Positions 1,356-20,475 of a stretch of DNA of 20,795 bases are shown piece after piece. The notes beneath the pieces are model-generated. The model did no database searches, had not been told where the DNA came from, and saw only the letters and a program-made list of their open reading frames with translations. The position numbers and the translations under genes were made by a program. Position 1 is the stretch's first letter. Every line of letters starts with the position of its first letter. Origin of the DNA: a virus (lineage: Duplodnaviria; Heunggongvirae; Uroviricota; Caudoviricetes); the IMG/VR virus record IMGVR_UViG_2529292920_000022; one strand, given 5' to 3'.

Positions 1356-2321
1356 ATGAACGACTCTCATGAAACAACAGTGGTGCATAGAAATTTATGG
1401 CAGGAATCAGGTATTCCACCTTTGGACTACTGCACGATAGAGCGAGCATCAAAATTATTAAATTGTGAAATTGATGATATATGGCATTGGAAAGATAGAC
1501 TACATATAGACTTTTATGTCTATGCTGACTTTCTTGATTTCATTGAATCTGATGCCACCATCCACTTCAAAAAAGATGCTAATTTTATAACTGATTTATT
1601 ACTTATGTACCCAGAAGAAGTAAGGTTTACATTTCCTTTTCTTATTACCAGCGCAAGCAACGAAGTTTATATCCCAGCATCTGAAAGCGGTGCTTATGAG
1701 CTATTTTATGCACATAAACCACTGACAGTTGAAGACAGCGACAATAAAAATGTTTTTGAACAAATTGGCAAAAACTCTTTTATTGTAAGAAAATCAATTG
1801 CATGTGGATTGTTGCGTGTACGCGGTAGAACAACACGACATTATCATTCACAAGAATGTGGAGAACCATATGTGCGACTTGAAGCAACATTTGATTGTGA
1901 TCTATATAAATTCAAAATGCAAAGTTCCCAAATTCACCTGAGTAGCCTGTCAGATAAAAACATTTATATAACAAAGGCTGATTTAGAATACCTTCATGAC
2001 GCAAAGGTTAATGGAAGTTTTGACGCAGCTAAGAGCAAAAAACGATACGAAATGGCGGTAGAACAGGAACTAATACCTGAAATAAAAAATAGCAACCATA
2101 ATGCCGAGAGACATGCTGAAAACAGGGAAAAACTTTTCAAATCTGCAATATATCTTTTGTCAAAGTATCCTGATGAATGCCGTGGCAAAAAGAAAGAAAT
2201 AAGCCCTGAGAAGTGGCGGGATTGCATAGTGGCTCATAAAGACGAAATTCCACCGTTAGCAATCACAAATGAAGATGTGATTTTGAGACACTTACGTGCT
2301 GCCGCCAACGGTAAGGGGTAG
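1356..2321 (+). CDS. Hypothetical protein, AT-rich cargo gene between int and alpA (same position as yfjH in CP4-57)
   Basis: 321-aa ORF with an AAAAGG Shine-Dalgarno upstream. Markedly lower GC than the flanking int and alpA. No motif I recognise. Followed by a strong intrinsic terminator. Confidence 0.6.
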   Translation: MNDSHETTVVHRNLWQESGIPPLDYCTIERASKLLNCEIDDIWHWKDRLHIDFYVYADFLDFIESDATIHFKKDANFITDLLLMYPEEVRFTFPFLITSASNEVYIPASESGAYELFYAHKPLTVEDSDNKNVFEQIGKNSFIVRKSIACGLLRVRGRTTRHYHSQECGEPYVRLEATFDCDLYKFKMQSSQIHLSSLSDKNIYITKADLEYLHDAKVNGSFDAAKSKKRYEMAVEQELIPEIKNSNHNAERHAENREKLFKSAIYLLSKYPDECRGKKKEISPEKWRDCIVAHKDEIPPLAITNEDVILRHLRAAANGKG

Positions 2322-2336
2322 AGTAGCTAACTATTC

Positions 2337-2367
2337 AGGCACAGTATCATTACTGTGCCTTTTTATT
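2337..2367 (+). terminator. Rho-independent terminator after the AT-rich cargo ORF
   Basis: 10-bp perfect stem AGGCACAGTA / TACTGTGCCT with a 4-nt loop, followed by a T-rich run. Confidence 0.6.
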
Positions 2368-2435
2368 GTTCATATATGTACAGATACTTCCTCCCGTAAC
2401 GAAGCAACAACTATCGCTAAGAGGTTACGGGAAGC

Positions 2436-2639
2436 ATGAACACCGACACTATTCCTACAAAAGGCTATATCAGACGCTTCCGCCTGGCTGAATTGCTGGG
2501 CGTTAGTGTATCCACCATCGACCGTAAAGTAAGAAACGGTTCACTACCACGTCCGGTAAAGCTGGGAGAAAAAATAACTGCGTTTGATGCGGTTGAGATT
2601 CACAACTGGCTGGCAGAACGCCGCGGGAAGGTGGCCTGA
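2436..2639 (+). CDS. alpA: AlpA-family transcriptional regulator / excisionase-like protein
   Basis: 67-aa ORF; the segment RRFRLAELLGVSVSTIDRKVRNGSLPRPVKLGEKITAFDAVEIHNWL matches the AlpA / MerR-like HTH pattern. Sits next to a P4-type integrase. The RBS region is flanked by an inverted repeat (CCCGTAAC ... GTTACGGG). Confidence 0.85.
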   Translation: MNTDTIPTKGYIRRFRLAELLGVSVSTIDRKVRNGSLPRPVKLGEKITAFDAVEIHNWLAERRGKVA

Positions 2640-2649
2640 TGGAAAAGAA

Positions 2650-3770
2650 AAACCGCCCATTACAGGCGGCTAATTCAGATATTCGCGTATCTGATGTTAC
2701 GCCCCTGACAAAATCCCTTCAAGCACCTGTATGGGTCCACCACATATTGCAATTTTTATTCTCTTTTAAAATATATTCCACGGGCGTCATTAGTGCGAGC
2801 GCCTTGTGGGGTCTTTTGCTGTTATACAGCACCAGATATTCCGCCAGCTTCTGGTTAAATAGCGCCAGATCTTCAAAGAGTAAAATCTCATTAAATTCAA
2901 TAAACTGCTCTCTTAACGTCCGGTTAAAACGTTCACAGATAGCGTTCATTTTTGGCGTGTAGGGATAGGTCCAGAGGTGTTTGATAGCGGCTTCCTGCAG
3001 CGTTTTGTCGAAGTTTCCCAGGAACTCTTTTCCGTTATCTGTGATTATCTGGCTGATACCGACCGGGAACAACCGGGCTGCGCGGCTGAAGAAGTGATTG
3101 ACGATATCACTGTTGAGTGACGGCACAGCCAGCGCCAGCGCGTAATTGCTGCATTCGTCGATCATGGTGATGACATAGCGACGCAGTTCGCCCATTCTGA
3201 GCTCAATGGCGTCCATCCCAATGAGCTCACCTGTCTTTACCGGGCGGTAGTGCTTTGGCCTGCGGGGTTTGGCAGACCGCTTTTTGACAAGCAGTGCCTT
3301 CCCCCGCGATCCCAGACGCACAGGTATCATCCGCATTTTATCATGTGCGGCAGCGATCATTCTGCCGATGGTGGAAACACTCGGACAGGCCAGATAGCGC
3401 TGTTCGCACCAGGGCTTCAGGCGAACAAAAATCTGCTCTTTACCGAGGTTCGGCAGCTCTGTCCTGAGGCGTCGAATCTCTTTCAGCACATCGGGATGCC
3501 AGTGTTTTTTTCGTCGCACCAGAGGTGCCTTACTGTGCGGGATTAGCCCCTCAGGTCCTTCCTTGTTCAGTAACTGACGCCACCAGTAAAGCGTGCGGCA
3601 GGACACGCCAAAGGCTTCAGAAGCTGCAGAAATACCGTGTTTATCCCAGAAGTGCAGAGCCTTCATTCTCATTGTTGCTATATCAGCCATCACTGAAAGC
3701 CTCAACGCATAATCGGCCGTTTGGTAGTACTTAGGATAGCCAACCATCAGATGCTGCATTTGCATAGTGC
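2650..3770 (-). mobile_element. IS481-family-like insertion sequence (single-ORF DDE transposase); boundaries approximate
   Basis: A single minus-strand ORF with an N-terminal HTH and an rve-type DDE core fills the gap between alpA and the next plus-strand gene. Imperfect inverted motifs near both ends (CATCAGAT-containing) are candidate terminal repeats. Exact ends and target-site duplication not resolved. Confidence 0.5.
2719..3765 (-). CDS. DDE transposase (rve / integrase core), IS481-family-like
   Basis: 348-aa ORF. N-terminal HTH (MADIATMRMKALHFWDKHGISAASEAFGVSCRTLYWWRQ) and candidate D, D, E residues (GMDAIEL, ITDNGKEF, NAICERFNRTL). The true start is probably the internal Met near 3690. 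Confidence 0.75.
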   Translation of the reverse strand: MQMQHLMVGYPKYYQTADYALRLSVMADIATMRMKALHFWDKHGISAASEAFGVSCRTLYWWRQLLNKEGPEGLIPHSKAPLVRRKKHWHPDVLKEIRRLRTELPNLGKEQIFVRLKPWCEQRYLACPSVSTIGRMIAAAHDKMRMIPVRLGSRGKALLVKKRSAKPRRPKHYRPVKTGELIGMDAIELRMGELRRYVITMIDECSNYALALAVPSLNSDIVNHFFSRAARLFPVGISQIITDNGKEFLGNFDKTLQEAAIKHLWTYPYTPKMNAICERFNRTLREQFIEFNEILLFEDLALFNQKLAEYLVLYNSKRPHKALALMTPVEYILKENKNCNMWWTHTGA

Positions 3771-3865
3771 AATCTCCCCTTACTTATCCGGAGGCAATTG
3801 CAATATCTCTGTGAACTTACACAGCACCAAAGCGCACACCGAAAAAGCATCGTGCCAGAGTCTAT

Positions 3866-4171
3866 ATGCTGCGTACTGGTATAGAGGGATGGACAGAAAA
3901 TGACATTCTTCGCTACTGCCGTCTGTCTTCTGGTCGTAACTATGCAACAGAGTTAGAACGCCAGCTTGGAATCACTCTGGAGCGTATCGACGAAAAGAAT
4001 CCTGATGGTATCGGAACACACCTTCGCTACCGTTTCTCCTGCCGTGGTGATGTTCTGAAAGTGATCACTCATGTTAACCATCTTGCGAACATAAATGATC
4101 ACAACGGACTTTCTCAGCAGGAAATTGCCGACATTCTGAAACTCTACCCGAACGCGTTTAACGCCGCCTAA
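3866..4171 (+). CDS. Hypothetical protein (101 aa); possibly a remnant of a gene disrupted by the IS
   Basis: Open frame immediately right of the IS with no convincing RBS at the annotated ATG. Confidence 0.35.
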   Translation: MLRTGIEGWTENDILRYCRLSSGRNYATELERQLGITLERIDEKNPDGIGTHLRYRFSCRGDVLKVITHVNHLANINDHNGLSQQEIADILKLYPNAFNAA

Positions 4172-4183
4172 CGGAGACTGAAA

Positions 4184-5017
4184 ATGAACATCGAAAAAAG
4201 CAGATTAATTTCTGAGGCCGCCCCTCATCTGAACGCCTCTCTGGGCACAATTAACGGTAATGAATTTGCCGCAATTGTCCCGGTTATTCCTGGTCATATC
4301 GGTGGGCGTGAAACCAATATTGTTAGCGCAAAAGCGTTACACAAAGCGTTGGGCGTGGGAAAAGACTTCTCTACATGGATCACTGATCGCATCTCTGAAT
4401 ATGACTTCACCATTGGGCACGATTACTCAGTCCATAAAACAATTTCCCCAAATTTGGGGAAAAGCCCGAATGGCGCGGCTTACAGCAAGATAAAGCACTC
4501 TGGCAGACCCGGCAAAGACTATCTGTTAAGTGTCGGAATGGCGAAAGAACTGGCAATGATCGAACGCAATGATCAGGGTCGCGCTATCCGCCGTTATTTC
4601 ATCCAGTGCGAGGAAGAATTACAGCGTACCGTGCCTGAAATCGCCGCCCGCTATCGTCGCCAGCTAAAAGCCCGTATTAGTGCCGCAAACAACTTTAAGC
4701 CAATGTGCGATGCGCTGAATATGGCCCGTGCCGAGATGGGGAAAATGACGCAGCAACACCACTACACAAACGAGAGCAATATGATTTCTCGTATCGTTCT
4801 TGGTGGGCTAACTGCTAAGCAGTGGGCGCGGATAAATGGCTATTCTGGCGAACCTCGCGACCATATGAACGCAGAACAGCTTGAGCACCTCTCATATCTC
4901 GAAAGCACCAATATCACGTTAATTGATATGGGCATGGAATATGAGCAGCGCAAAGGAGAACTCACCCGCCTGTCGCAACGCTGGCTCGCCAAGCGTCTGG
5001 AGGCGCTCAATGTCTAA
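4184..5017 (+). CDS. AntA/AntB-domain antirepressor-like protein
   Basis: 277-aa ORF. The segment KDYLLSVGMAKELAMIERNDQGRAIRRYFIQCEE and the preceding region match the AntA antirepressor domain pattern. Confidence 0.65.
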   Translation: MNIEKSRLISEAAPHLNASLGTINGNEFAAIVPVIPGHIGGRETNIVSAKALHKALGVGKDFSTWITDRISEYDFTIGHDYSVHKTISPNLGKSPNGAAYSKIKHSGRPGKDYLLSVGMAKELAMIERNDQGRAIRRYFIQCEEELQRTVPEIAARYRRQLKARISAANNFKPMCDALNMARAEMGKMTQQHHYTNESNMISRIVLGGLTAKQWARINGYSGEPRDHMNAEQLEHLSYLESTNITLIDMGMEYEQRKGELTRLSQRWLAKRLEALNV

Positions 5018-5847: not shown

Positions 5848-6042
5848 ATGCTGGCTACTACCCCTACCCAAAAACCGCAATTTATCTGGATTATCGCCGC
5901 AGTTCGCCGCGATTGCCCGACAATTACCGCCAGAATTCATCATATTGCTGCCGAGTCTGAACGCGATGCTCGCCGTTCTCTGGTGCGCGATCACGTCTGC
6001 TTTTTTGCTGGTCGTATCCGCATGGAGGTGGCACATGATTAA
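5848..6042 (+). CDS. Icd-like (cell-division-inhibitor-like) small protein
   Basis: 64-aa ORF MLATTPTQKPQFIWIIAAVRRDCPTITARIHHIAAESERDARRSLVRDHVCFFAGRIRMEVAHD. The FxGR...V...H C-terminal pattern and size match Icd-like proteins of P1/P4-like elements. Good RBS. Confidence 0.55.
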   Translation: MLATTPTQKPQFIWIIAAVRRDCPTITARIHHIAAESERDARRSLVRDHVCFFAGRIRMEVAHD

Positions 6043-7865: not shown

Positions 7866-8229
7866 AAATGCAGAAATGGCGCTTAGCTCCGCAATCGGAG
7901 AGCAGGTGGCAAAGATTGCTGGTGCTGTGTGGATTCATAACCTTCATTCTACTGGTGAAGAGAAAATGGCAATTCAGACGCCAGAGGGACGCACTATTAC
8001 TACATCTCTGAAGCCGTCAGATGTTTGTGATCTGATTTGCGCATTCATGTACCCAGCAATGAGGACTGTCCACGGCGATAAGTGGAAACTTGCGACAACC
8101 GCTGAATTTGATATGTGGCTAAACAATGATGGCATGCTGACTGATTACGGAATAACCAAGTGGCAGATGCTGGTTAGCCATATCGCAAACGCTATAGACC
8201 ACGTGGGGTACGGTGATGCGAAACATTGA
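7858..8229 (+). CDS. Hypothetical protein (123 aa)
   Basis: Start overlaps the upstream ORF end; its stop overlaps the primase start. Confidence 0.5.
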   Translation: MRENAEMALSSAIGEQVAKIAGAVWIHNLHSTGEEKMAIQTPEGRTITTSLKPSDVCDLICAFMYPAMRTVHGDKWKLATTAEFDMWLNNDGMLTDYGITKWQMLVSHIANAIDHVGYGDAKH

Positions 8230-10972
8230 TCTTATCCGTCAGGTTATCAGTGCGTCTGAAAACAACTGGCCTCATGTGCTGGGCTGCCTGAACATAAATG
8301 TCCCTGACTCTCCGCGCCGTCATGCTCCCTGCCCTGCATGTGGGGGCAAAGATCGATTCCGGTTCGATGACAACGGGCGCGGTAGCTTCATCTGTAATCA
8401 GTGCGGCGCTGGTGATGGGCTGGATTTAATTAAACGCGTAAATAACTGCGACACAACAGAGGCGGCGCTGCTTGCCGCTGATGTTCTGGGTATTGATTAC
8501 CGGACAACGGAAACACCAGAAGCCACCAGCCAGAAACGGGAACAACTGGAAACCGAGCGCCAGCAACGCGAACAGGAGCGCCTGAAAAGGGCGGAGAAGG
8601 ACGAACAACAAAGACGGGATACGTTTTCCCGTCAGTTTGATGACATGCGCAGAAAGGCTGTAAACGGCAAATCTGATTATCTGGTTGCGAAAGGGGTAGG
8701 TGATTTTACATTCCCCGTGTTGCCCGATGGATCTCTGTTGCTGGCGCTGGTGGATAAATCCGGCGCAGTCACAGCAGCACAGACTATTACCTCACATGGT
8801 GAAAAAAGACTCCTGACAGGTTCAGCAAAGCGGGGGGCATATCACGCCATAAACGCACCAGAAACAACACAGAGCATCTTAATCGCAGAAGGGCTGGCAA
8901 CGGCATTATCTGCCCATTTAATTCGTCCAGAGGCGCTGACAGTGGCGGCGATTGATGCCGGGAACCTGTTATATGTCGCCCAGGTACTGCGGGATAAATT
9001 TCCTTCAGCACAAATCATCATTGCTGCGGATAACGACCACAGCGAAGGAAGACAAAACACGGGGAGAATAGCAGCAGAAAAAGCAGCTTTATCTGTTTCT
9101 GGATGGGTGGCATTACCCCCGACAGGTCACAAAGCAGACTGGAATGATTACCACCAAAAACACGGCATTAAATGCGCCACAGAAGCGTTCAATAAGTCAA
9201 TGTACCAACCACAGGGTAATGGCGTGAAACAGGAGCCACAGACCATTGAGGGAAGCGATTTTAAGGTTATGGATACCGACCCACTGAAACCAAGAATAGA
9301 AAGCCGCGAGGATGGTATTTATTGGGTATCTCCGAGAGCTGACAGCCAGAGTGGAGAAATCATCAATAACGAAAGCTGGTTATGTTCTCCGTTAAGCGTT
9401 ATCGGTACTGGCAGAGACGATAAAGACCAGTATCTCATTCTTCGCTGGCTGTCGTTTGGTTCTGAAACGCCGACAACCGCTGCCATTCCACTGGCTGATA
9501 TTGGTGAACGTGAAGGATGGCGCACACTTAAAGCTGGTGGGGTAAATGTCACGACCAAAAGCAGCCTCAGAGCAATACTGGCAGACTGGCTACAACGCAG
9601 TGGCTCTCGTGAATTGTGGCGTGTTGCTCATGCCACTGGCTGGCAATGCGGAGCGTACATCATGCCTGATGGGGAAATCATCGGAACACCTGAAAATCCT
9701 GTGCTGTTCAGCGGGAGAAGCTCAGCCGCAGCCGGATATACCGTCTCAGGGAGCGCGCAAAGCTGGCGTGATAACGTGGCGCGTCTGGCCTTTGGTAACT
9801 ATTCAATGATGACCGGGATCGGCGCAGCACTGGCAGCACCATTGATTGGGCTGGTGGGCGCTGACGGGTTCGGCATTCATTTCTATGAGCAGTCGAGCGC
9901 AGGTAAGACCACCACGGCAAACGTGGCGAGCAGCTTATACGGCAACCCTGATTTACTGCGGCTGACGTGGTACGGAACCGCGCTGGGGCTGGCAAATGAG
10001 GCCGCCGCCCACAATGACGGACTAATGCCGCTTGATGAAGTTGGTCAGGGCGCTGATCCTGTCAGCGTTTCACAGTCTGCCTATGCGTTATTTAACGGTG
10101 TAGGGAAACTGCAAGGCGCTAAAGATGGTGGAAACCGGGATCTAAAACGCTGGCGTACAGTGGCAATCAGCACCGGAGAAATGGATTTAGAAACATTTAT
10201 CGCTACTTCCGGGCGAAAAACCAAAGCCGGGCAACTGGTGCGACTGCTGAATATTCCGTTGAGTAAAGCAGTACGCTTTCACGATTACCAGAACGGAAAA
10301 CAGCACGCAGACGCACTGAAAGACGCTTACCAGCATCACCATGGCGCAGCCGGGCGTGAGTGGATTAAATGGCTGGCAGACCACCAGCAACAGGCTATTA
10401 AAACTGTTCGTGATTGCGAAAGCAGATGGAGAAGCCTGATCCCACCCGATTATGGTGAGCAGGTTCACCGTGTAGCCGCGCGATTTGCCATTCTGGAGGC
10501 CGCATTGTTGTTAGGCGAGGTTGTAACAGGCTGGGATGCTCAGACATGCCGTGATGCGATACAGCACAGCTATAACGCATGGTTGCGCGAGTTCGGCACA
10601 GGTAACAAAGAGCATCAGCAGATTATTGAACAAACGGAGGCATTTCTTAATGCCTATGGGCTTAGCCGTTTTGCACCATTTCCATACAGCCCGGCAGATT
10701 TGCCCATCAAAGATTTAGCCGGATACCGTCAGCGTGGAGAACATGACGAAAGCCCAATGATTTTCTACACATTCCCGGCCACATTTGAAAAGGAGATCGC
10801 ATGTGGTTTCAACGCAAAACAGTTTGCTGAAGTGTTGAAAAAAGCCGGGATGCTAACCCCACCAAACAGCGGTCGTGGATACCAAAGAAAATCACCACGT
10901 ATTCAGGGACGACAAATAAACGTTTATGTACTCAATTACCAGCCAGGAGATTATAACTCATCTGAAGAATGA
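8213..10972 (+). CDS. Primase-helicase (P4 alpha-like: zinc-binding primase region, TOPRIM, C-terminal helicase domain)
   Basis: 919-aa ORF. N-terminal Cys cluster (CPACGGKDRF...CNQCG); TOPRIM-like acidic motifs (IAEGLATALS..., IIIAADNDHSEGRQNTG); Walker A-like GIHFYEQSSAGKTT and Walker B-like LMPLDEVG. The ATG at 8216 is the likely start (8213 is GTG). Confidence 0.9.
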   Translation: MMRNIDLIRQVISASENNWPHVLGCLNINVPDSPRRHAPCPACGGKDRFRFDDNGRGSFICNQCGAGDGLDLIKRVNNCDTTEAALLAADVLGIDYRTTETPEATSQKREQLETERQQREQERLKRAEKDEQQRRDTFSRQFDDMRRKAVNGKSDYLVAKGVGDFTFPVLPDGSLLLALVDKSGAVTAAQTITSHGEKRLLTGSAKRGAYHAINAPETTQSILIAEGLATALSAHLIRPEALTVAAIDAGNLLYVAQVLRDKFPSAQIIIAADNDHSEGRQNTGRIAAEKAALSVSGWVALPPTGHKADWNDYHQKHGIKCATEAFNKSMYQPQGNGVKQEPQTIEGSDFKVMDTDPLKPRIESREDGIYWVSPRADSQSGEIINNESWLCSPLSVIGTGRDDKDQYLILRWLSFGSETPTTAAIPLADIGEREGWRTLKAGGVNVTTKSSLRAILADWLQRSGSRELWRVAHATGWQCGAYIMPDGEIIGTPENPVLFSGRSSAAAGYTVSGSAQSWRDNVARLAFGNYSMMTGIGAALAAPLIGLVGADGFGIHFYEQSSAGKTTTANVASSLYGNPDLLRLTWYGTALGLANEAAAHNDGLMPLDEVGQGADPVSVSQSAYALFNGVGKLQGAKDGGNRDLKRWRTVAISTGEMDLETFIATSGRKTKAGQLVRLLNIPLSKAVRFHDYQNGKQHADALKDAYQHHHGAAGREWIKWLADHQQQAIKTVRDCESRWRSLIPPDYGEQVHRVAARFAILEAALLLGEVVTGWDAQTCRDAIQHSYNAWLREFGTGNKEHQQIIEQTEAFLNAYGLSRFAPFPYSPADLPIKDLAGYRQRGEHDESPMIFYTFPATFEKEIACGFNAKQFAEVLKKAGMLTPPNSGRGYQRKSPRIQGRQINVYVLNYQPGDYNSSEE

Positions 10973-11734: not shown

Positions 11735-12196
11735 ATGGAACTAAAATTTATTGATAACCCTGTGCGATTACAGGCCTTTCTTAACGAGCCAGGCAATACC
11801 GAAAATATTGTTGAGCCGGGGCACACGTACTACATCAAGCCTGATGCGGTATATCTCGGCATCTACGAAGGATTAGTGCTGGCTGGCGTTCATGAAGTGC
11901 GTAACTTCTGGCATAGCGTTGTTGAATGCCATGCGGTGTACGACCCCGGATTCCGTGGTGAATATGCACTGCAAGGGCATCGATTATTCTGCAAATGGCT
12001 TCTCGAAAACTCACCATTCCTTAACAGCATCACCATGGTTCCTGACACCACCAAATACGGACGGGCAATTATCCGTTTGCTTGGCGCTACCCGTGTTGGT
12101 CACCTTGATGATGCTTATATCAGATGTGGTAAACCCGTCGGCGTAACGCTTTATCAGTTAACTCGGCAACAATATAAGGAATTCAGCGAATGTTAA
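11735..12196 (+). CDS. Phage virion-assembly-associated protein, P22 gp14-like by position (tentative)
   Basis: 153-aa ORF translationally coupled (ATGTTAA overlap) to the following three genes. Assigned by position in a gp14-gp7-gp20-gp16-like array; the sequence itself is not diagnostic to me. Confidence 0.4.
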   Translation: MELKFIDNPVRLQAFLNEPGNTENIVEPGHTYYIKPDAVYLGIYEGLVLAGVHEVRNFWHSVVECHAVYDPGFRGEYALQGHRLFCKWLLENSPFLNSITMVPDTTKYGRAIIRLLGATRVGHLDDAYIRCGKPVGVTLYQLTRQQYKEFSEC

Positions 12197-12867
12197 TTAC
12201 CCATATAGCTCATAAACATCTCAATCGTGCCGTATACGAAAAAGGCGGTGATGGTGGTGCCTCTAAAGCTCAGGCGAAGGCCCAGCAGCAGGCAATTGAT
12301 TTGCAGCGCGAGCAGTGGAATACGGTGATGAATAATCTCAAGCCGTATGCAGAAGTCGGATTGCCTGCTTTACAACAACTGCAAGGACTGATGACTCTGG
12401 AAGGGCAGAATAAAGCCGCGAATGATTTCTTTGGTTCTGGTTTATATAAAACACAGGCAGATCAGGCCCGTTATCAGAACCTTGTCTCAGCAGAAGCTAC
12501 CGGGGGGCTTGGCTCAACAGCTACCAGTAACCAGTTATCTTCCATTGCGCCCATGCTTTATAACAATTGGCTCAGTGGGCAAATGCAAAATTATGGAAAC
12601 CTGCTAAATGTCGGGATGAATGCGGCATCAGGGCAGGCAACGGCAGGGCAAAACTACGCCAATAATACCGGACAACTCTTGCAGGGGCTTGGCGCTATTC
12701 GTGCAGGTCAGGCGCAGCAGCCATCCAGTCTTGCGCGTGGTATTGGTGGGGCAGCATCAGGCGCTTTAGCGGGTGCGCAACTTGGTTCCGTTGTTCCTGG
12801 AATAGGAACTGCGGCCGGCGCTATTGGTGGTGGGCTTATTGGTCTTGTTGGGGGGCTTGGATTCTAA
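12190..12867 (+). CDS. Ejection (internal virion) protein, P22 gp7-like
   Basis: 225 aa (P22 gp7 is about 229 aa as I recall). Gln/Ala/Gly-rich with a Gly-rich hydrophobic C-terminus (GIGTAAGAIGGGLIGLVGGLGF). TAATG coupling to the next gene. Confidence 0.55.
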   Translation: MLITHIAHKHLNRAVYEKGGDGGASKAQAKAQQQAIDLQREQWNTVMNNLKPYAEVGLPALQQLQGLMTLEGQNKAANDFFGSGLYKTQADQARYQNLVSAEATGGLGSTATSNQLSSIAPMLYNNWLSGQMQNYGNLLNVGMNAASGQATAGQNYANNTGQLLQGLGAIRAGQAQQPSSLARGIGGAASGALAGAQLGSVVPGIGTAAGAIGGGLIGLVGGLGF

Positions 12868-14288
12868 TGGCGACATGGCAACTTGGCGGGCTGCCTAGCA
12901 TGGCACCGCAAAATGATAATGCTCCTCGTTCTTCCGTTCCTCAGCCTGTGCAGTATCAGCAGCAGCCAAACGTAGGTTTAATGGCGCTACAGGGGCTAAG
13001 AGGCGTTGCTGAGATTAATCAGCAGGCACGTCAACAACAGCGTAAATCAGAGTTTCAGAAAGCATATGCCGGGGCTTTTGAGTCTGGAGACAGAAACAAA
13101 ATGCGCAGTCTTATTTCTGAGTATCCAGAAGAATTTGAAAGCGTTCAGAAAGGGATGGGCTTTATTGATGACGACCAGAGAAATTCTATTGGTCATCTTG
13201 CGACTAGTGCTCAAATCGCATCTTCGCTCGGAACTGGGGCATTTGGAAAATTCATAGCAGATAACGAAGATGAAATGCGTCGCTTGGGAATTTCTCCTGA
13301 GTCTGTTGCCGAAATGCATGTTAATGATCCACAGGGATTCCAGCGGCTTGCTGGTAGTATGGCACTGTTTTCTCTCGGTCATGAGAAGTATTTCGATATC
13401 AAAGATCAAATGGAAGGTCGGGATATTGAGCGAGGCAGGCTGGCAGAGACAATCCGCAGCAATCAGGCTGGCGAAGCACTTCAGGCGAGAGGGCAGGATA
13501 TTAGCCGAGCAAATGCGTTAACGTCAGCATATGCACCAACAGCAGCAATGCAGAATTACAATCAGTACGCTCAAATGTTAAAGGCGGATCCAGAGGGGGC
13601 GGCGGCATTTGCGGCAGCGGCTGGAATTAATACAAACGCCAAAAAATTAATGAGTGTTAGAGAAAACGATGATGGCACTGTCACAAAATACTACACAGAC
13701 GGAAGTGAAGAGCAGGGAAAACTAAACCAGCCAATATCTGGAGATGGGTTTCGTCCAATAGCTTTGCCAACAGCCCAAAAGATCATGGAAAAGTCGCCAG
13801 AAGGGGCTAAAAAAGCTGCTGGATTTGCATACAGGGTTAGGGATGCTCTTGATTCAATAGATACACTGAAAGACCAGCTTAGCCCACAGCGAGTGGCGAT
13901 CATTAATAATGCTTTGGGTAATGGGACGCTGGCTAACTTAACGCTCAGCCCAACAGAGCAGCAATACGTTGTTAATGCTAATGACGCAATAATGGCAATA
14001 CTCCGTCAGGAAACAGGGGCAGCTATCGTACCTGCTGAAATGTCAAAATATTATCAAATGTATTTCCCTCAGCCTGGCGACTCCACAAAAACCATTGATA
14101 CCAAGCGCCGGAAGATGGAAAACCAGTTCAATTCGCTGAAAGCTGCTTCTGGTCGAGCTTATGATGCTTTGCGGGTTATTTCAGCAGTTGACAGAGGAAC
14201 GTCTTCTTCGTCGCAGACATTGCCGCAATCTGAGCAGGTATCACAGCCAGCAGCCAGCAGTAACTTTTCTTCACTATGGGGTGATTAA
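12867..14288 (+). CDS. Ejection protein, P22 gp20-like
   Basis: 473 aa (P22 gp20 is about 471 aa as I recall). Low-complexity Q/A-rich N-terminus. TAATG coupling on both sides. Confidence 0.55.
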   Translation: MATWQLGGLPSMAPQNDNAPRSSVPQPVQYQQQPNVGLMALQGLRGVAEINQQARQQQRKSEFQKAYAGAFESGDRNKMRSLISEYPEEFESVQKGMGFIDDDQRNSIGHLATSAQIASSLGTGAFGKFIADNEDEMRRLGISPESVAEMHVNDPQGFQRLAGSMALFSLGHEKYFDIKDQMEGRDIERGRLAETIRSNQAGEALQARGQDISRANALTSAYAPTAAMQNYNQYAQMLKADPEGAAAFAAAAGINTNAKKLMSVRENDDGTVTKYYTDGSEEQGKLNQPISGDGFRPIALPTAQKIMEKSPEGAKKAAGFAYRVRDALDSIDTLKDQLSPQRVAIINNALGNGTLANLTLSPTEQQYVVNANDAIMAILRQETGAAIVPAEMSKYYQMYFPQPGDSTKTIDTKRRKMENQFNSLKAASGRAYDALRVISAVDRGTSSSSQTLPQSEQVSQPAASSNFSSLWGD

Positions 14289-16393
14289 TGGCTAAAGCAT
14301 GGAAAGATGTTATCGCCTCTCCACAGTATCAGGCGTTAGCACCAGAACAAAAAGCGCAGGCTCAGGAGCAATACTTCAATGAAGTCGTTGCCCCGCAAGC
14401 CGGAGAAAGTGTAGAGCAGGCTAAGCAGGCTTTTTATGCTGCCTATCCACTACCATCAACGAATGAAATAGACCGATCCCAATCAGCAACTCAAAATATT
14501 CAACATACATCATCTGATAATTCTCTTGCGTCAGGGTATGCAAAGTTAGCTACTCAGCAAAGAGAGGGGCTTGAGCGTTCAGCAGAACAGGGAGCCAGTC
14601 TTGGGGCTGCGATGCGCGATGCTATAACAGGCGAAAGCCGAATGACTTCAGAGATGGAGAGACTGCAAAATGTCGCCTCTGCCCCAGAATTGAACTCACT
14701 AAGCATGGATGCCCTAAAGGCTGGATGGTCCCAACTTTTCGGCTCTGACGCGTCTCAGGAAAAGATTCTTCAGGGAATGGGGGCGACATTAAGGCAGGAT
14801 GAGAAGGGGAATACTATCGTTTCTCTGCCATCAGGTGATTATGCCCTGAACAAGCCGGGTTTATCACCGCAAGACCTGACTTCGTTTCTTGCTAATGCGT
14901 TGGCGTTTACACCAGCGGGCAGGGCTGGAACGGTGCTTGGTGCCATAGGAAAATCAGCAGCTACAGATTTAGCACTACAGGGAGCCACCAGCCTTGCTGG
15001 TGGAGAAGATATTGATCCGTTACAAACGGTAATTTCTGCTGGTATTGGTGGTATTGGTAAGGGGCTGGAAAATACAGCGAGTGCGGTTTCGAGGGCTGTT
15101 CGTGGTGATATGTCGCCTGAAGCAAAGGCTGCTGTCGACTTTGCATCGGAAAGAAATCTGCCGTTAATGACCAGTGACATGCTGAAAGATAAAACCTTTA
15201 TGCAGAGTCAGGCTCAGACATTAGGCGAAAGAGTTCCTTTTTTTGGAACCGGTAAGAATCGGCTGAATCAACAACAAGCACGAGAAAATTTAGTCAGAAC
15301 ATTTAGCGATGGTCTGGGTGGCATTTCTGATAAACAGCTTTATGAATCTGCGACTAAAGGGCAACAAAAATTCATTGAGGCAGCAGGAAAGCGATATAAC
15401 CGCATAATTGACGCTATGGGGGATACCCCTGTCGATCTCTCAAACACGGTAAAAGCTATCGACAATCAGATTGCCGTGTTAAGCCGCCCGGGCAAATCTC
15501 AGGATAGAGCCGCGGTAAAAGTCTTGCAGCAATTTAAAGACGATATCACCAGCGGACCAAATGACCTGCGCCTGGCGAGGGAAAACAGAACCGATCTTCG
15601 AAAGCGATTTATTGCGTCATCTGACACTGTTGATAAAGATACGCTCCAGAAAGCCAGCGATATTATCTACAAGGCATATACGGCGGATATGAAAAAAGCC
15701 GTAGCCAAAAATCTTGGAGCAGACGAAGCCATTAATATGGCAAGGGTTGATCGCTCATGGTCTAAATTCAATGACATGATGGGAAGAACGCGCGTTCAAA
15801 AGGCAATAGCCAGCGGCAAGGCCACGCCTGAGGATGTAACAAAACTCGTTTTTAGCCAAAGCCCATCAGAACGTTCTCAGCTTTACAGGCTTCTGGATGA
15901 CAATGGTAGGCAAAACGCACGAGCAGCCATAGTTCAGAATGCTGTAGATAAGGCGACTGATCCGTCTGGAAATATCAGTGTTGAGAAGTTTATTAATGCG
16001 TTACACCGGAACAGGAAGCAATCAGCAACTTTCTTTAAAGGCGTACATGGGAAGGAACTGGACGGCGTTATTAAATACCTCAACGATACAAGACACGCGG
16101 CAAAAGCGAACGTTCAAAACTTAAATGGTCAGCAGCTTTATGGATTGTTAGTTGGTGGTGGCATCATAAACGCAGCAGTATTAGCGGGGATGCTAAAAAC
16201 GGCTGCGTTTGTTGTTCCTGCTGCTGGTGCCGTAGGCGGAGCAGCGAAGGCATACGAAACCCCTGTTATACGAAATGCCTTGTTACGTCTGGCAAATACG
16301 CCAAAAGGTAGCACAGCATATGACAGAGCGATCAGTACGGTCACACAATCGCTCACCAGAGTCGCACAGGCATCACAAAAAGAAGCTCAATAA
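14288..16393 (+). CDS. Ejection protein, P22 gp16-like
   Basis: 701 aa. Ala/Gln/Gly-rich with a C-terminal hydrophobic Gly/Ala segment (LLVGGGIINAAVLAGMLKTAAFVVPAAGAVGGAA). Last gene of the four-gene coupled operon. Confidence 0.55.
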   Translation: MAKAWKDVIASPQYQALAPEQKAQAQEQYFNEVVAPQAGESVEQAKQAFYAAYPLPSTNEIDRSQSATQNIQHTSSDNSLASGYAKLATQQREGLERSAEQGASLGAAMRDAITGESRMTSEMERLQNVASAPELNSLSMDALKAGWSQLFGSDASQEKILQGMGATLRQDEKGNTIVSLPSGDYALNKPGLSPQDLTSFLANALAFTPAGRAGTVLGAIGKSAATDLALQGATSLAGGEDIDPLQTVISAGIGGIGKGLENTASAVSRAVRGDMSPEAKAAVDFASERNLPLMTSDMLKDKTFMQSQAQTLGERVPFFGTGKNRLNQQQARENLVRTFSDGLGGISDKQLYESATKGQQKFIEAAGKRYNRIIDAMGDTPVDLSNTVKAIDNQIAVLSRPGKSQDRAAVKVLQQFKDDITSGPNDLRLARENRTDLRKRFIASSDTVDKDTLQKASDIIYKAYTADMKKAVAKNLGADEAINMARVDRSWSKFNDMMGRTRVQKAIASGKATPEDVTKLVFSQSPSERSQLYRLLDDNGRQNARAAIVQNAVDKATDPSGNISVEKFINALHRNRKQSATFFKGVHGKELDGVIKYLNDTRHAAKANVQNLNGQQLYGLLVGGGIINAAVLAGMLKTAAFVVPAAGAVGGAAKAYETPVIRNALLRLANTPKGSTAYDRAISTVTQSLTRVAQASQKEAQ

Positions 16394-17567: not shown

Positions 17568-19928
<2,361 letters not shown>

Positions 19929-20187: not shown

Positions 20188-20475
20188 ATGATAAAGGACA
20201 GGAAAGCTGAAGAGCTGGAGTCAAAAGGGCTATACCGGAGAGCTGCCGCACGATGGGCAGAAGTCATGATGCTGGCAGATGGCGATAAAGAACGTGAACA
20301 TGCAGCAAACAGACGCTCTGAATGTATCCGTAAGGCGGCACGCCCACCAGCAACTACAGACAGATTCGGAGATTTAAGACAGGCAGTTAAGCGGACTCAT
20401 TCGGCTCTTGGTATGGATGAGGAAGCGAGAGGGTACTTCAGGCGTTATCGCGATAAAGATTGCCAGAGACAGTAA
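20188..20475 (+). CDS. PerC-family transcriptional regulator-like protein
   Basis: 95-aa ORF; the N-terminus MIKDRKAEELESKGLYRRAAARWAEVM matches the PerC/Pch family pattern. TATAAT-like -10 and a GAGAGG RBS lie just upstream, directly next to the iterons. Confidence 0.65.
   Translation: MIKDRKAEELESKGLYRRAAARWAEVMMLADGDKEREHAANRRSECIRKAARPPATTDRFGDLRQAVKRTHSALGMDEEARGYFRRYRDKDCQRQ

Follow-up and report, generated by a model that had tools for sequence, protein, structure and literature searches.

Members of the IS481 family of insertion sequences (IS) are about 1-1.3 kb long, carry imperfect inverted repeats opening with 5′-TGT, produce a short direct duplication of their target and encode a DDE transposase (rve fold), related to IS3 OrfB, in one long ORF, with no programmed frameshift. 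The target duplication of IS481 from Bordetella pertussis, the prototype of the family, is 6 bp long (NCTAGN). This IS alters the expression of neighbouring genes (PMC6161684). ISKpn28, another member of the family, is found on plasmids of Klebsiella pneumoniae; it disrupts mgrB and, in Escherichia coli, hlyA (PMC6101004, PMC7841143), and the sequence ATATTGCAATT was reported as its inverted repeat in the study of mgrB disruption (PMC6101004).

The genes that characterise P4-like satellites (integrase, AlpA and alpha-type primase/helicase) are present in the window, i.e. the whole stretch of 20,795 nucleotides analysed here. An IS481-family element lies in the gene that follows alpA, hereafter orf143. 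It is very likely that an intact copy of a recently active, ISKpn28-related IS transposed into codon 30 of orf143 and inactivated this gene, with probable polarity on the genes downstream. This is an ordinary, recent gene disruption of a known kind, and nothing mechanistically new is in evidence.

Genetic context

The window starts with a gene encoding a tyrosine integrase (int, 1-1260), which in relatives adjoins yicC. The gene alpA (2436-2639, plus strand) encodes a 67-aa protein with an AlpA/excisionase-type HTH (Pfam Phage_AlpA, E = 2.2e-8) and is the first gene of a rightward operon. It is separated from the preceding ORF by a terminator-like hairpin (2337-2360). The genes from alpA through the primase gene (8213-10972; Zn_Ribbon_Prim, Toprim_3, DUF927; phrog_1139) are co-directional, and their junctions overlap or do not exceed 12 nt. 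This tight packing and the hairpin before alpA are consistent with a single operon headed by alpA. The antA-type antirepressor gene (4184-5017, plus strand; Pfam AntA, E = 2.7e-21; PHROG anti-repressor Ant) begins 12 nt past the stop codon of orf143 and would thus be reached first by any polarity. An Ash-family protein is also encoded in the island.

Further to the right, a block of P22-type genes (11735-16393) includes DUF2824, ejection protein gp7, Inj_translocase (gp20-like) and a 701-aa ORF that occupies the place of gp16. It is followed by an IS21-family pair (17793-19542) of istA-like (340 aa) and istB-like (220 aa) genes, both apparently short, and then by a gene encoding a homologue of PerC-family transcriptional activators (20188-20475). 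Neither tRNA genes nor visible capsid or tail genes were found in the window, and no Pfam match to psu, delta, sid, epsilon or capsid-redirecting genes was obtained when its larger ORFs were compared with general Pfam models. The gene content points to a satellite-like island (P4-type primase) with the order integrase-alpA-orf143-antirepressor-ash-primase, orf143 being translationally coupled to alpA, and with yicC as neighbour of the integrated island. In Klebsiella and Pectobacterium, the same order is kept: integrase, an ORF of about 280-320 aa, alpA, orf143 (stop/start overlap), AntA or Bro-N, DUF927 primase.

Boundaries and target of the insertion sequence

The ends of the IS were set by fetching independent copies anchored on the terminal sequences. 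All 17 copies compared, including ISKpn28, are 1096 bp long, from TGTATGGGTCCACC... through ...GTGAACTTACACA, which corresponds to positions 2728-3823 of the window (minus strand, TGT...ACA termini). One end reads TGTATGGGTCCAC... and the other TGTGTAAGTTCAC...; these imperfect terminal inverted repeats (about 27/28 bp) have in common the sub-terminal 11-mer ATATTGCAATT, found at 2744-2754 and 3796-3806. The size and the TGT-type inverted repeats are thus those of the IS481 family.

The short direct duplication expected for the family is also present. The IS is flanked by two copies of GCACC (2723-2727 and 3824-3828), the empty site was verified in relatives, and 14/17 of the copies compared have an intact 5-bp direct repeat. 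The sequence-only reading had given 2640-4171 for an IS481-like insertion and had left its ends and duplication to be defined. That span does contain the IS; it is, however, the extent of the IS together with the gene that it splits, the IS alone being delimited by the 17 copies at 2728-3823 and its duplication as GCACC.

The left flanks were compared (window 2719-2727 and loci L001-L006, L016-L017 and L022-L029). In the window, the left copy of the duplication is directly preceded by TCAA (2719-2722). The three bases to the left of the duplicated pentamer are CAA in 17/17 copies (about 14 independent sites, ISKpn28 included), and position -9 relative to the IS is T or G in all 17. Two other delimitations were considered. 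Including this CAA in the IS was rejected: the empty site still has CAA, which is the invariant Gln28 codon of orf143, so that CAA reflects a target preference and is not IS sequence. A 6-bp duplication (A+N5) with IS ends TGT...CAC fits the sequence as well as a 5-bp one; the 5-bp duplication was preferred for its symmetric TGT/ACA termini.

Occurrence and recent activity of the insertion sequence

The region 2640-4171 was compared by megablast with 5,426 complete E. coli genomes. The IS was matched in 1,825 of these, at roughly 2,500 places in all and up to 38 per genome, and the top matches are limited to the IS (query positions ~74-81 to ~1184-1191). The insertion itself is absent from these complete RefSeq genomes, none of the 5,426 giving a match that covers at least 80% of 2640-4171. 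When the copy in the window is compared with those at 13 other sites in E. coli and E. albertii, 0-1 nt differ, and at least 17 plasmids of E. coli or E. albertii have a copy with 100% identity along all 1096 nt. It follows from these near-identical and identical copies that the IS copy is intact and that the element was recently active. The literature and the record annotations yield no name for it beyond 'IS481 family' and its relative ISKpn28, and PGAP labels its protein no more precisely than 'IS481 family transposase' or 'integrase core domain-containing protein'.

Many copies of this IS and of ISKpn28 are located about 70 nt upstream of different type I toxin genes of the hok family (hokA, hokD-like, plasmid hok and a Hok/Gef gene; right flanks of loci L016-L018, L023, L024, L026, L028 and L029). 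The divergence of the flanks suggests that hok loci are an insertion hot spot.

When species-representative genomes were searched with the end of the IS, two matches were obtained, too few for target statistics: one in Escherichia ruysiae and one in a 566-bp Streptomyces contig. The latter, an exact 27-nt match on NZ_BAAAHF010000206.1 (L020) from an assembly of Streptomyces malaysiensis, is most likely due to enterobacterial contamination of that assembly.

The transposase and its target-encoded end

The transposase CDS (2719-3765, minus strand) encodes 348 aa and matches Pfam rve, rve_3 and HTH_32. Its best NCBIfam model is transpos_IS481 (NF033577; 221.6 bits, just short of the cutoff of 224, E = 1.5e-65), matched over positions 2-283 of 284, and the runner-up, IS3, reaches 98.3 bits. 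The assignment to an IS481-like insertion near alpA made from the sequence alone is confirmed, and RefSeq labels identical or near-identical proteins 'IS481 family transposase'. The DDE triad is D185/D243/E278 (spacing 58/35), with R285 at +7. The single long ORF, the DDE transposase with its rve fold and the lack of programmed frameshift are as in other members of the family; the HTH is N-terminal.

The reading frame has no stop codon inside the IS, either in the window copy or in ISKpn28. Thr346 is the final codon encoded by the IS; the last two codons and the TGA stop (2719-2721) belong to the flanking target DNA. The motif (T/G)CAA-N5 places TG(A/C) in frame, so that a T at -9 leads to an immediate stop after two extra residues. 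This is the case of the TCAA target in the window; with other flanks, the tail is about 5 to more than 30 residues long. Because the frame is open at the IS end, PGAP calls proteins of 348-371 aa or flags them as 'incomplete'. Judging from the frames, the C-terminal tail of the transposase would be encoded by the target and would differ for every copy of the IS or of ISKpn28. As regards annotation, a transposase whose stop codon lies beyond the element should not be flagged as truncated on that ground alone.

The disrupted gene

The gene orf143 is split at codon 30 (Pro), 88 nt past its start, and the whole split gene spans 2639-4171. In the sequence-only reading, the IS occupies the place of a regulatory or cargo gene next to alpA; it is in fact located inside the gene that follows alpA. 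The 5′ fragment (2639-2727, plus strand) comprises codons 1-29 and 2 nt of codon 30; its ATG (2639) overlaps the stop codon of alpA (cTGATGg), and its frame runs on into antisense IS sequence, giving a 107-aa fusion ORF that ends at 2962. The 3′ fragment (3829-4171, plus strand) extends from the last base of codon 30 to the stop; it encodes the invariant basic motif RTPKKHRARVY (codons 32-42) and the domain that is predicted to fold. Removal of 2728-3828 (the IS and one copy of the repeat) restores an in-frame ORF of 432 nt and 143 codons from 2639 to 4171. A remnant had previously been proposed on the right of the IS only, the 5′ fragment now included in the 107-aa fusion ORF having been missed.

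The empty site was reconstructed by joining 2300-2727 to 3829-4400. This reconstruction was found in 660 of the 5,426 complete E. coli genomes, and its 1000 nt are 100.0% identical over the full length in at least 17 complete E. coli chromosomes, which have an intact 143-aa ORF at this position. Both this match and that of the IS are far beyond chance. In E. coli G3X16-2, RefSeq annotates a 143-aa hypothetical protein (WP_000412540.1) that directly adjoins alpA. In a large protein collection, at least 1000 contigs encode exactly this 143-aa sequence. Of the 608 homologues found, nearly all are 143-145 aa long and align over the full length; they are encoded by Escherichia, Salmonella, Klebsiella, Citrobacter, Enterobacter, Serratia, Pectobacterium and others. 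In an alignment of 26 sequences, the invariant residues are M1, N5-P7, Q9-A11, Q28, R32, P34-R40, Y42 and M43.

A 101-aa ORF (3866-4171, plus strand), for which no family was matched, can be read in the 3′ fragment. The sequence-only reading had noted that it lacks a good start signal and may be the 3′ remainder of a disrupted gene. Both points hold: its ATG is the invariant internal Met43 of the 143-aa protein, not preceded by any Shine-Dalgarno-like sequence, and IS-free relatives carry the 143-aa ORF. What these relatives have at this position is this ORF, joined to alpA by an ATGA overlap, and not an intact, free-standing 101-aa gene with its own promoter. The tail being readable only from Met43, its product lacks RTPKKHRARVY and half of the first predicted helix.

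The 101-aa ORF could in principle be a complete and independent gene, the IS being merely inserted in the spacer between alpA and this ORF. Some gene callers do annotate 101 aa at IS-free loci (L008 and L013), but these two loci have the full 143-codon frame from an ATG that overlaps the upstream stop. In addition, RefSeq annotates 143 aa, alignments with homologues from other genera cover 100% of its length, i.e. all 143 aa, and IS-free loci are devoid of any intergenic spacer. This possibility is therefore extremely improbable, and the 101-aa ORF is best considered as the 3′ part of orf143.

The function of orf143 was searched by profile and structure comparisons. Only sub-threshold Pfam matches to HTH_91 and HTH_24 (winged-helix) were obtained, in at most 4/26 family members, and there was no match in PHROGs or in the PDB sequence profile. 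The AlphaFold2 model (mean pLDDT 74.8) has residues 1-33 disordered, followed by H-H-H-beta-beta-H-H. A Foldseek search of this model against PDB and BFVD gave nothing at E<=0.001; its best, non-significant matches are generic winged helices of MarR/TFIIE type (TM ~0.3). The product is possibly a winged-helix protein, these matches being a weak hint.

A terminator-like hairpin followed by a T-run is found on the minus strand at 2651-2671, just past the transposase stop and within the conserved codons 5-11 of orf143. It is also present in IS-free relatives and may be due to chance (mean of 1.8 such sites per region in shuffled sequence).

The 101-aa form in other genomes

The exact 101-aa product has been deposited from several assemblies as 'hypothetical protein', and eight contexts of the exact ORF were inspected. 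The insertion is carried by only one of them, AIEZ01000032.1 (GCA_000249135.2), which matches the window at 100% identity along 10,171 nt; the IS insertion is thus specific to one lineage. Three contexts, all IS-free, have a 1-nt deletion at codon 23 of orf143 (two sequence variants) and an identical 101-codon tail (L009, L010 and L012, each at 5866-6015, which corresponds to about 2705-2710 of the window). These deletions indicate that orf143 was inactivated elsewhere independently of the IS. Two contexts (L008 and L013) have an intact 143-codon frame shortened by the gene caller, one has Ns in the region and one has an extra codon.

L008 and L013 (5244-5963) come from another E. coli lineage in which the module from orf143 to the primase gene is joined to a different integrase gene, next to proA. 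Their homology to the window starts 11 nt before the ATG of orf143, and no alpA was called there. This points to a modular recombination exactly at the alpA/orf143 junction.

The codon-23 deletions raise the possibility that the insertion is neutral: E. coli could already do without orf143 or the island, or these could be in decay, and the 101-aa form read from Met43, or none, could be enough. The invariance of Met43 across the family and the second IS (IS21 family, ~17.8-19.5 kb) in the same island would agree with this. However, the frameshifted contigs were retrieved with the 101-aa sequence and are a biased sample, no Shine-Dalgarno-like sequence precedes Met43, and the 143-aa form is found on at least 1000 contigs versus about 30 collection blocks for the 101-aa form. 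Furthermore, the conservation of the 42 N-terminal residues from genus to genus, the invariant RTPKKHRARVY among them, is an argument for selection acting on the protein in its full length. A neutral insertion is thus unlikely, although it is the least unlikely of the alternatives: E. coli may not need the N-terminal part of orf143, or orf143 at all, or the product read from Met43 may still be functional. The preferred reading remains the disruption of a conserved gene.

Consequences of the insertion

The proposed sequence of events would begin with transposition of the IS into codon 30 of orf143, duplicating GCACC. The gene is split into a 29-codon head fused to unrelated codons and a tail readable from Met43 only, and its function is presumably lost. 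The insertion would also add about 1.1 kb of antisense IS RNA between alpA and antA, leaving about 1.2 kb untranslated from 2962 to antA. Transcription from the alpA promoter into the genes from antA to the primase gene would probably be reduced by polarity, and the AlpA-dependent induction and the replication programme of the island would probably be weakened. Polarity is plausible because the operon is tightly packed and the insert between alpA and antA brings about 1.1 kb of untranslated sequence. GC-skew and composition were uninformative as hints of Rho-utilisation sites.

Uncoupling instead of silencing would be expected if the transposase-upstream end of the IS carried an outward promoter from which the remnant of orf143, antA and the replication genes are transcribed outside the control of alpA. 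In IS481 of B. pertussis, such a promoter (Pout), located near IRL and directed opposite to the transposase gene, drives flanking genes such as katA and bteA (PMC6161684). The equivalent end in the window (3823) points sense-wise into the operon; since it faces antA, compensation is conceivable. However, a consensus scan detected no sigma-70-like site, outward or for alpA, on either strand of 2250-4300, and a laxer scan gave a single weak candidate (CAGCCA-18-CATAAT, 3684-3713, 8/12 positions matched) whose -10 is not conserved in ISKpn28 (CATAAG). Moreover, the IS of the window is only distantly related to that of Bordetella. Expression from an outward promoter is accordingly quite improbable, clearly more so than a neutral insertion, and inactivation of orf143 with probable polarity is retained.

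Two further proposals are speculative and rather doubtful: that the choice of target may set the length and activity of the transposase and, separately, that orf143 may encode an uncharacterised partner of AlpA in satellite induction. If the former were true, target-set transposase tails could be the reason why independent insertions recur at a short distance upstream of hok-family toxin genes.

The main value of the finding is for clean annotation, in which the 101-aa and 107-aa ORFs should appear together as the two parts of a single gene disrupted by an IS. The strain is also a natural knockout of a conserved, uncharacterised, alpA-coupled gene in a widespread enterobacterial satellite-like island. 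As many isogenic-like IS-free relatives exist, it offers a ready-made comparison for the role of orf143 and of the operon.

Comparison with known elements

The island resembles the AlpA-led P4-like satellites and PICI-type islands of Enterobacterales by its tyrosine integrase, its AlpA-type regulator heading a co-directional operon, its antirepressor, its Ash-family protein and its P4 alpha-like primase (zinc-ribbon, Toprim, DUF927). It differs from them in that P22-type ejection-protein genes and a PerC homologue are found instead of psu/sid/delta-type or capsid-redirecting genes, which gave no match in Pfam scans of the larger window ORFs. No characterised counterpart of orf143 is found in these satellites and islands.

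The IS resembles the prototype IS481 of B. pertussis in its DDE (rve) transposase, encoded by one ORF with no frameshift, in its length of about 1 kb and its TGT-type termini, and in a target duplication that is short and shows sequence preference. The relation is distant, the match to the family HMM (221.6) being just below the NCBI cutoff (224). Unlike in Bordetella, the duplication is 5 bp long in a CAA-N5 context, and no conserved outward promoter was detected in the window IS by the promoter scans.

Isoforms of an IS are conventionally defined in ISfinder by roughly >=95% aa and >=90% nt identity. Compared with copies named ISKpn28 by PGAP, the window IS has 75.4% nt identity over 1096 bp and 80% aa identity over 346 residues, well short of the near-identity required for ISKpn28 or its isoform. 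By these thresholds, it would be a separate IS, a distinct relative of ISKpn28. Both are 1096 bp long; the terminal ~30 nt on the transposase-distal side are identical, and those on the opposite side nearly so. They also have in common the sub-terminal ATATTGCAATT repeats, the 5-bp duplication, the CAA-N5 target context and a transposase ORF that is open at the end of the element.
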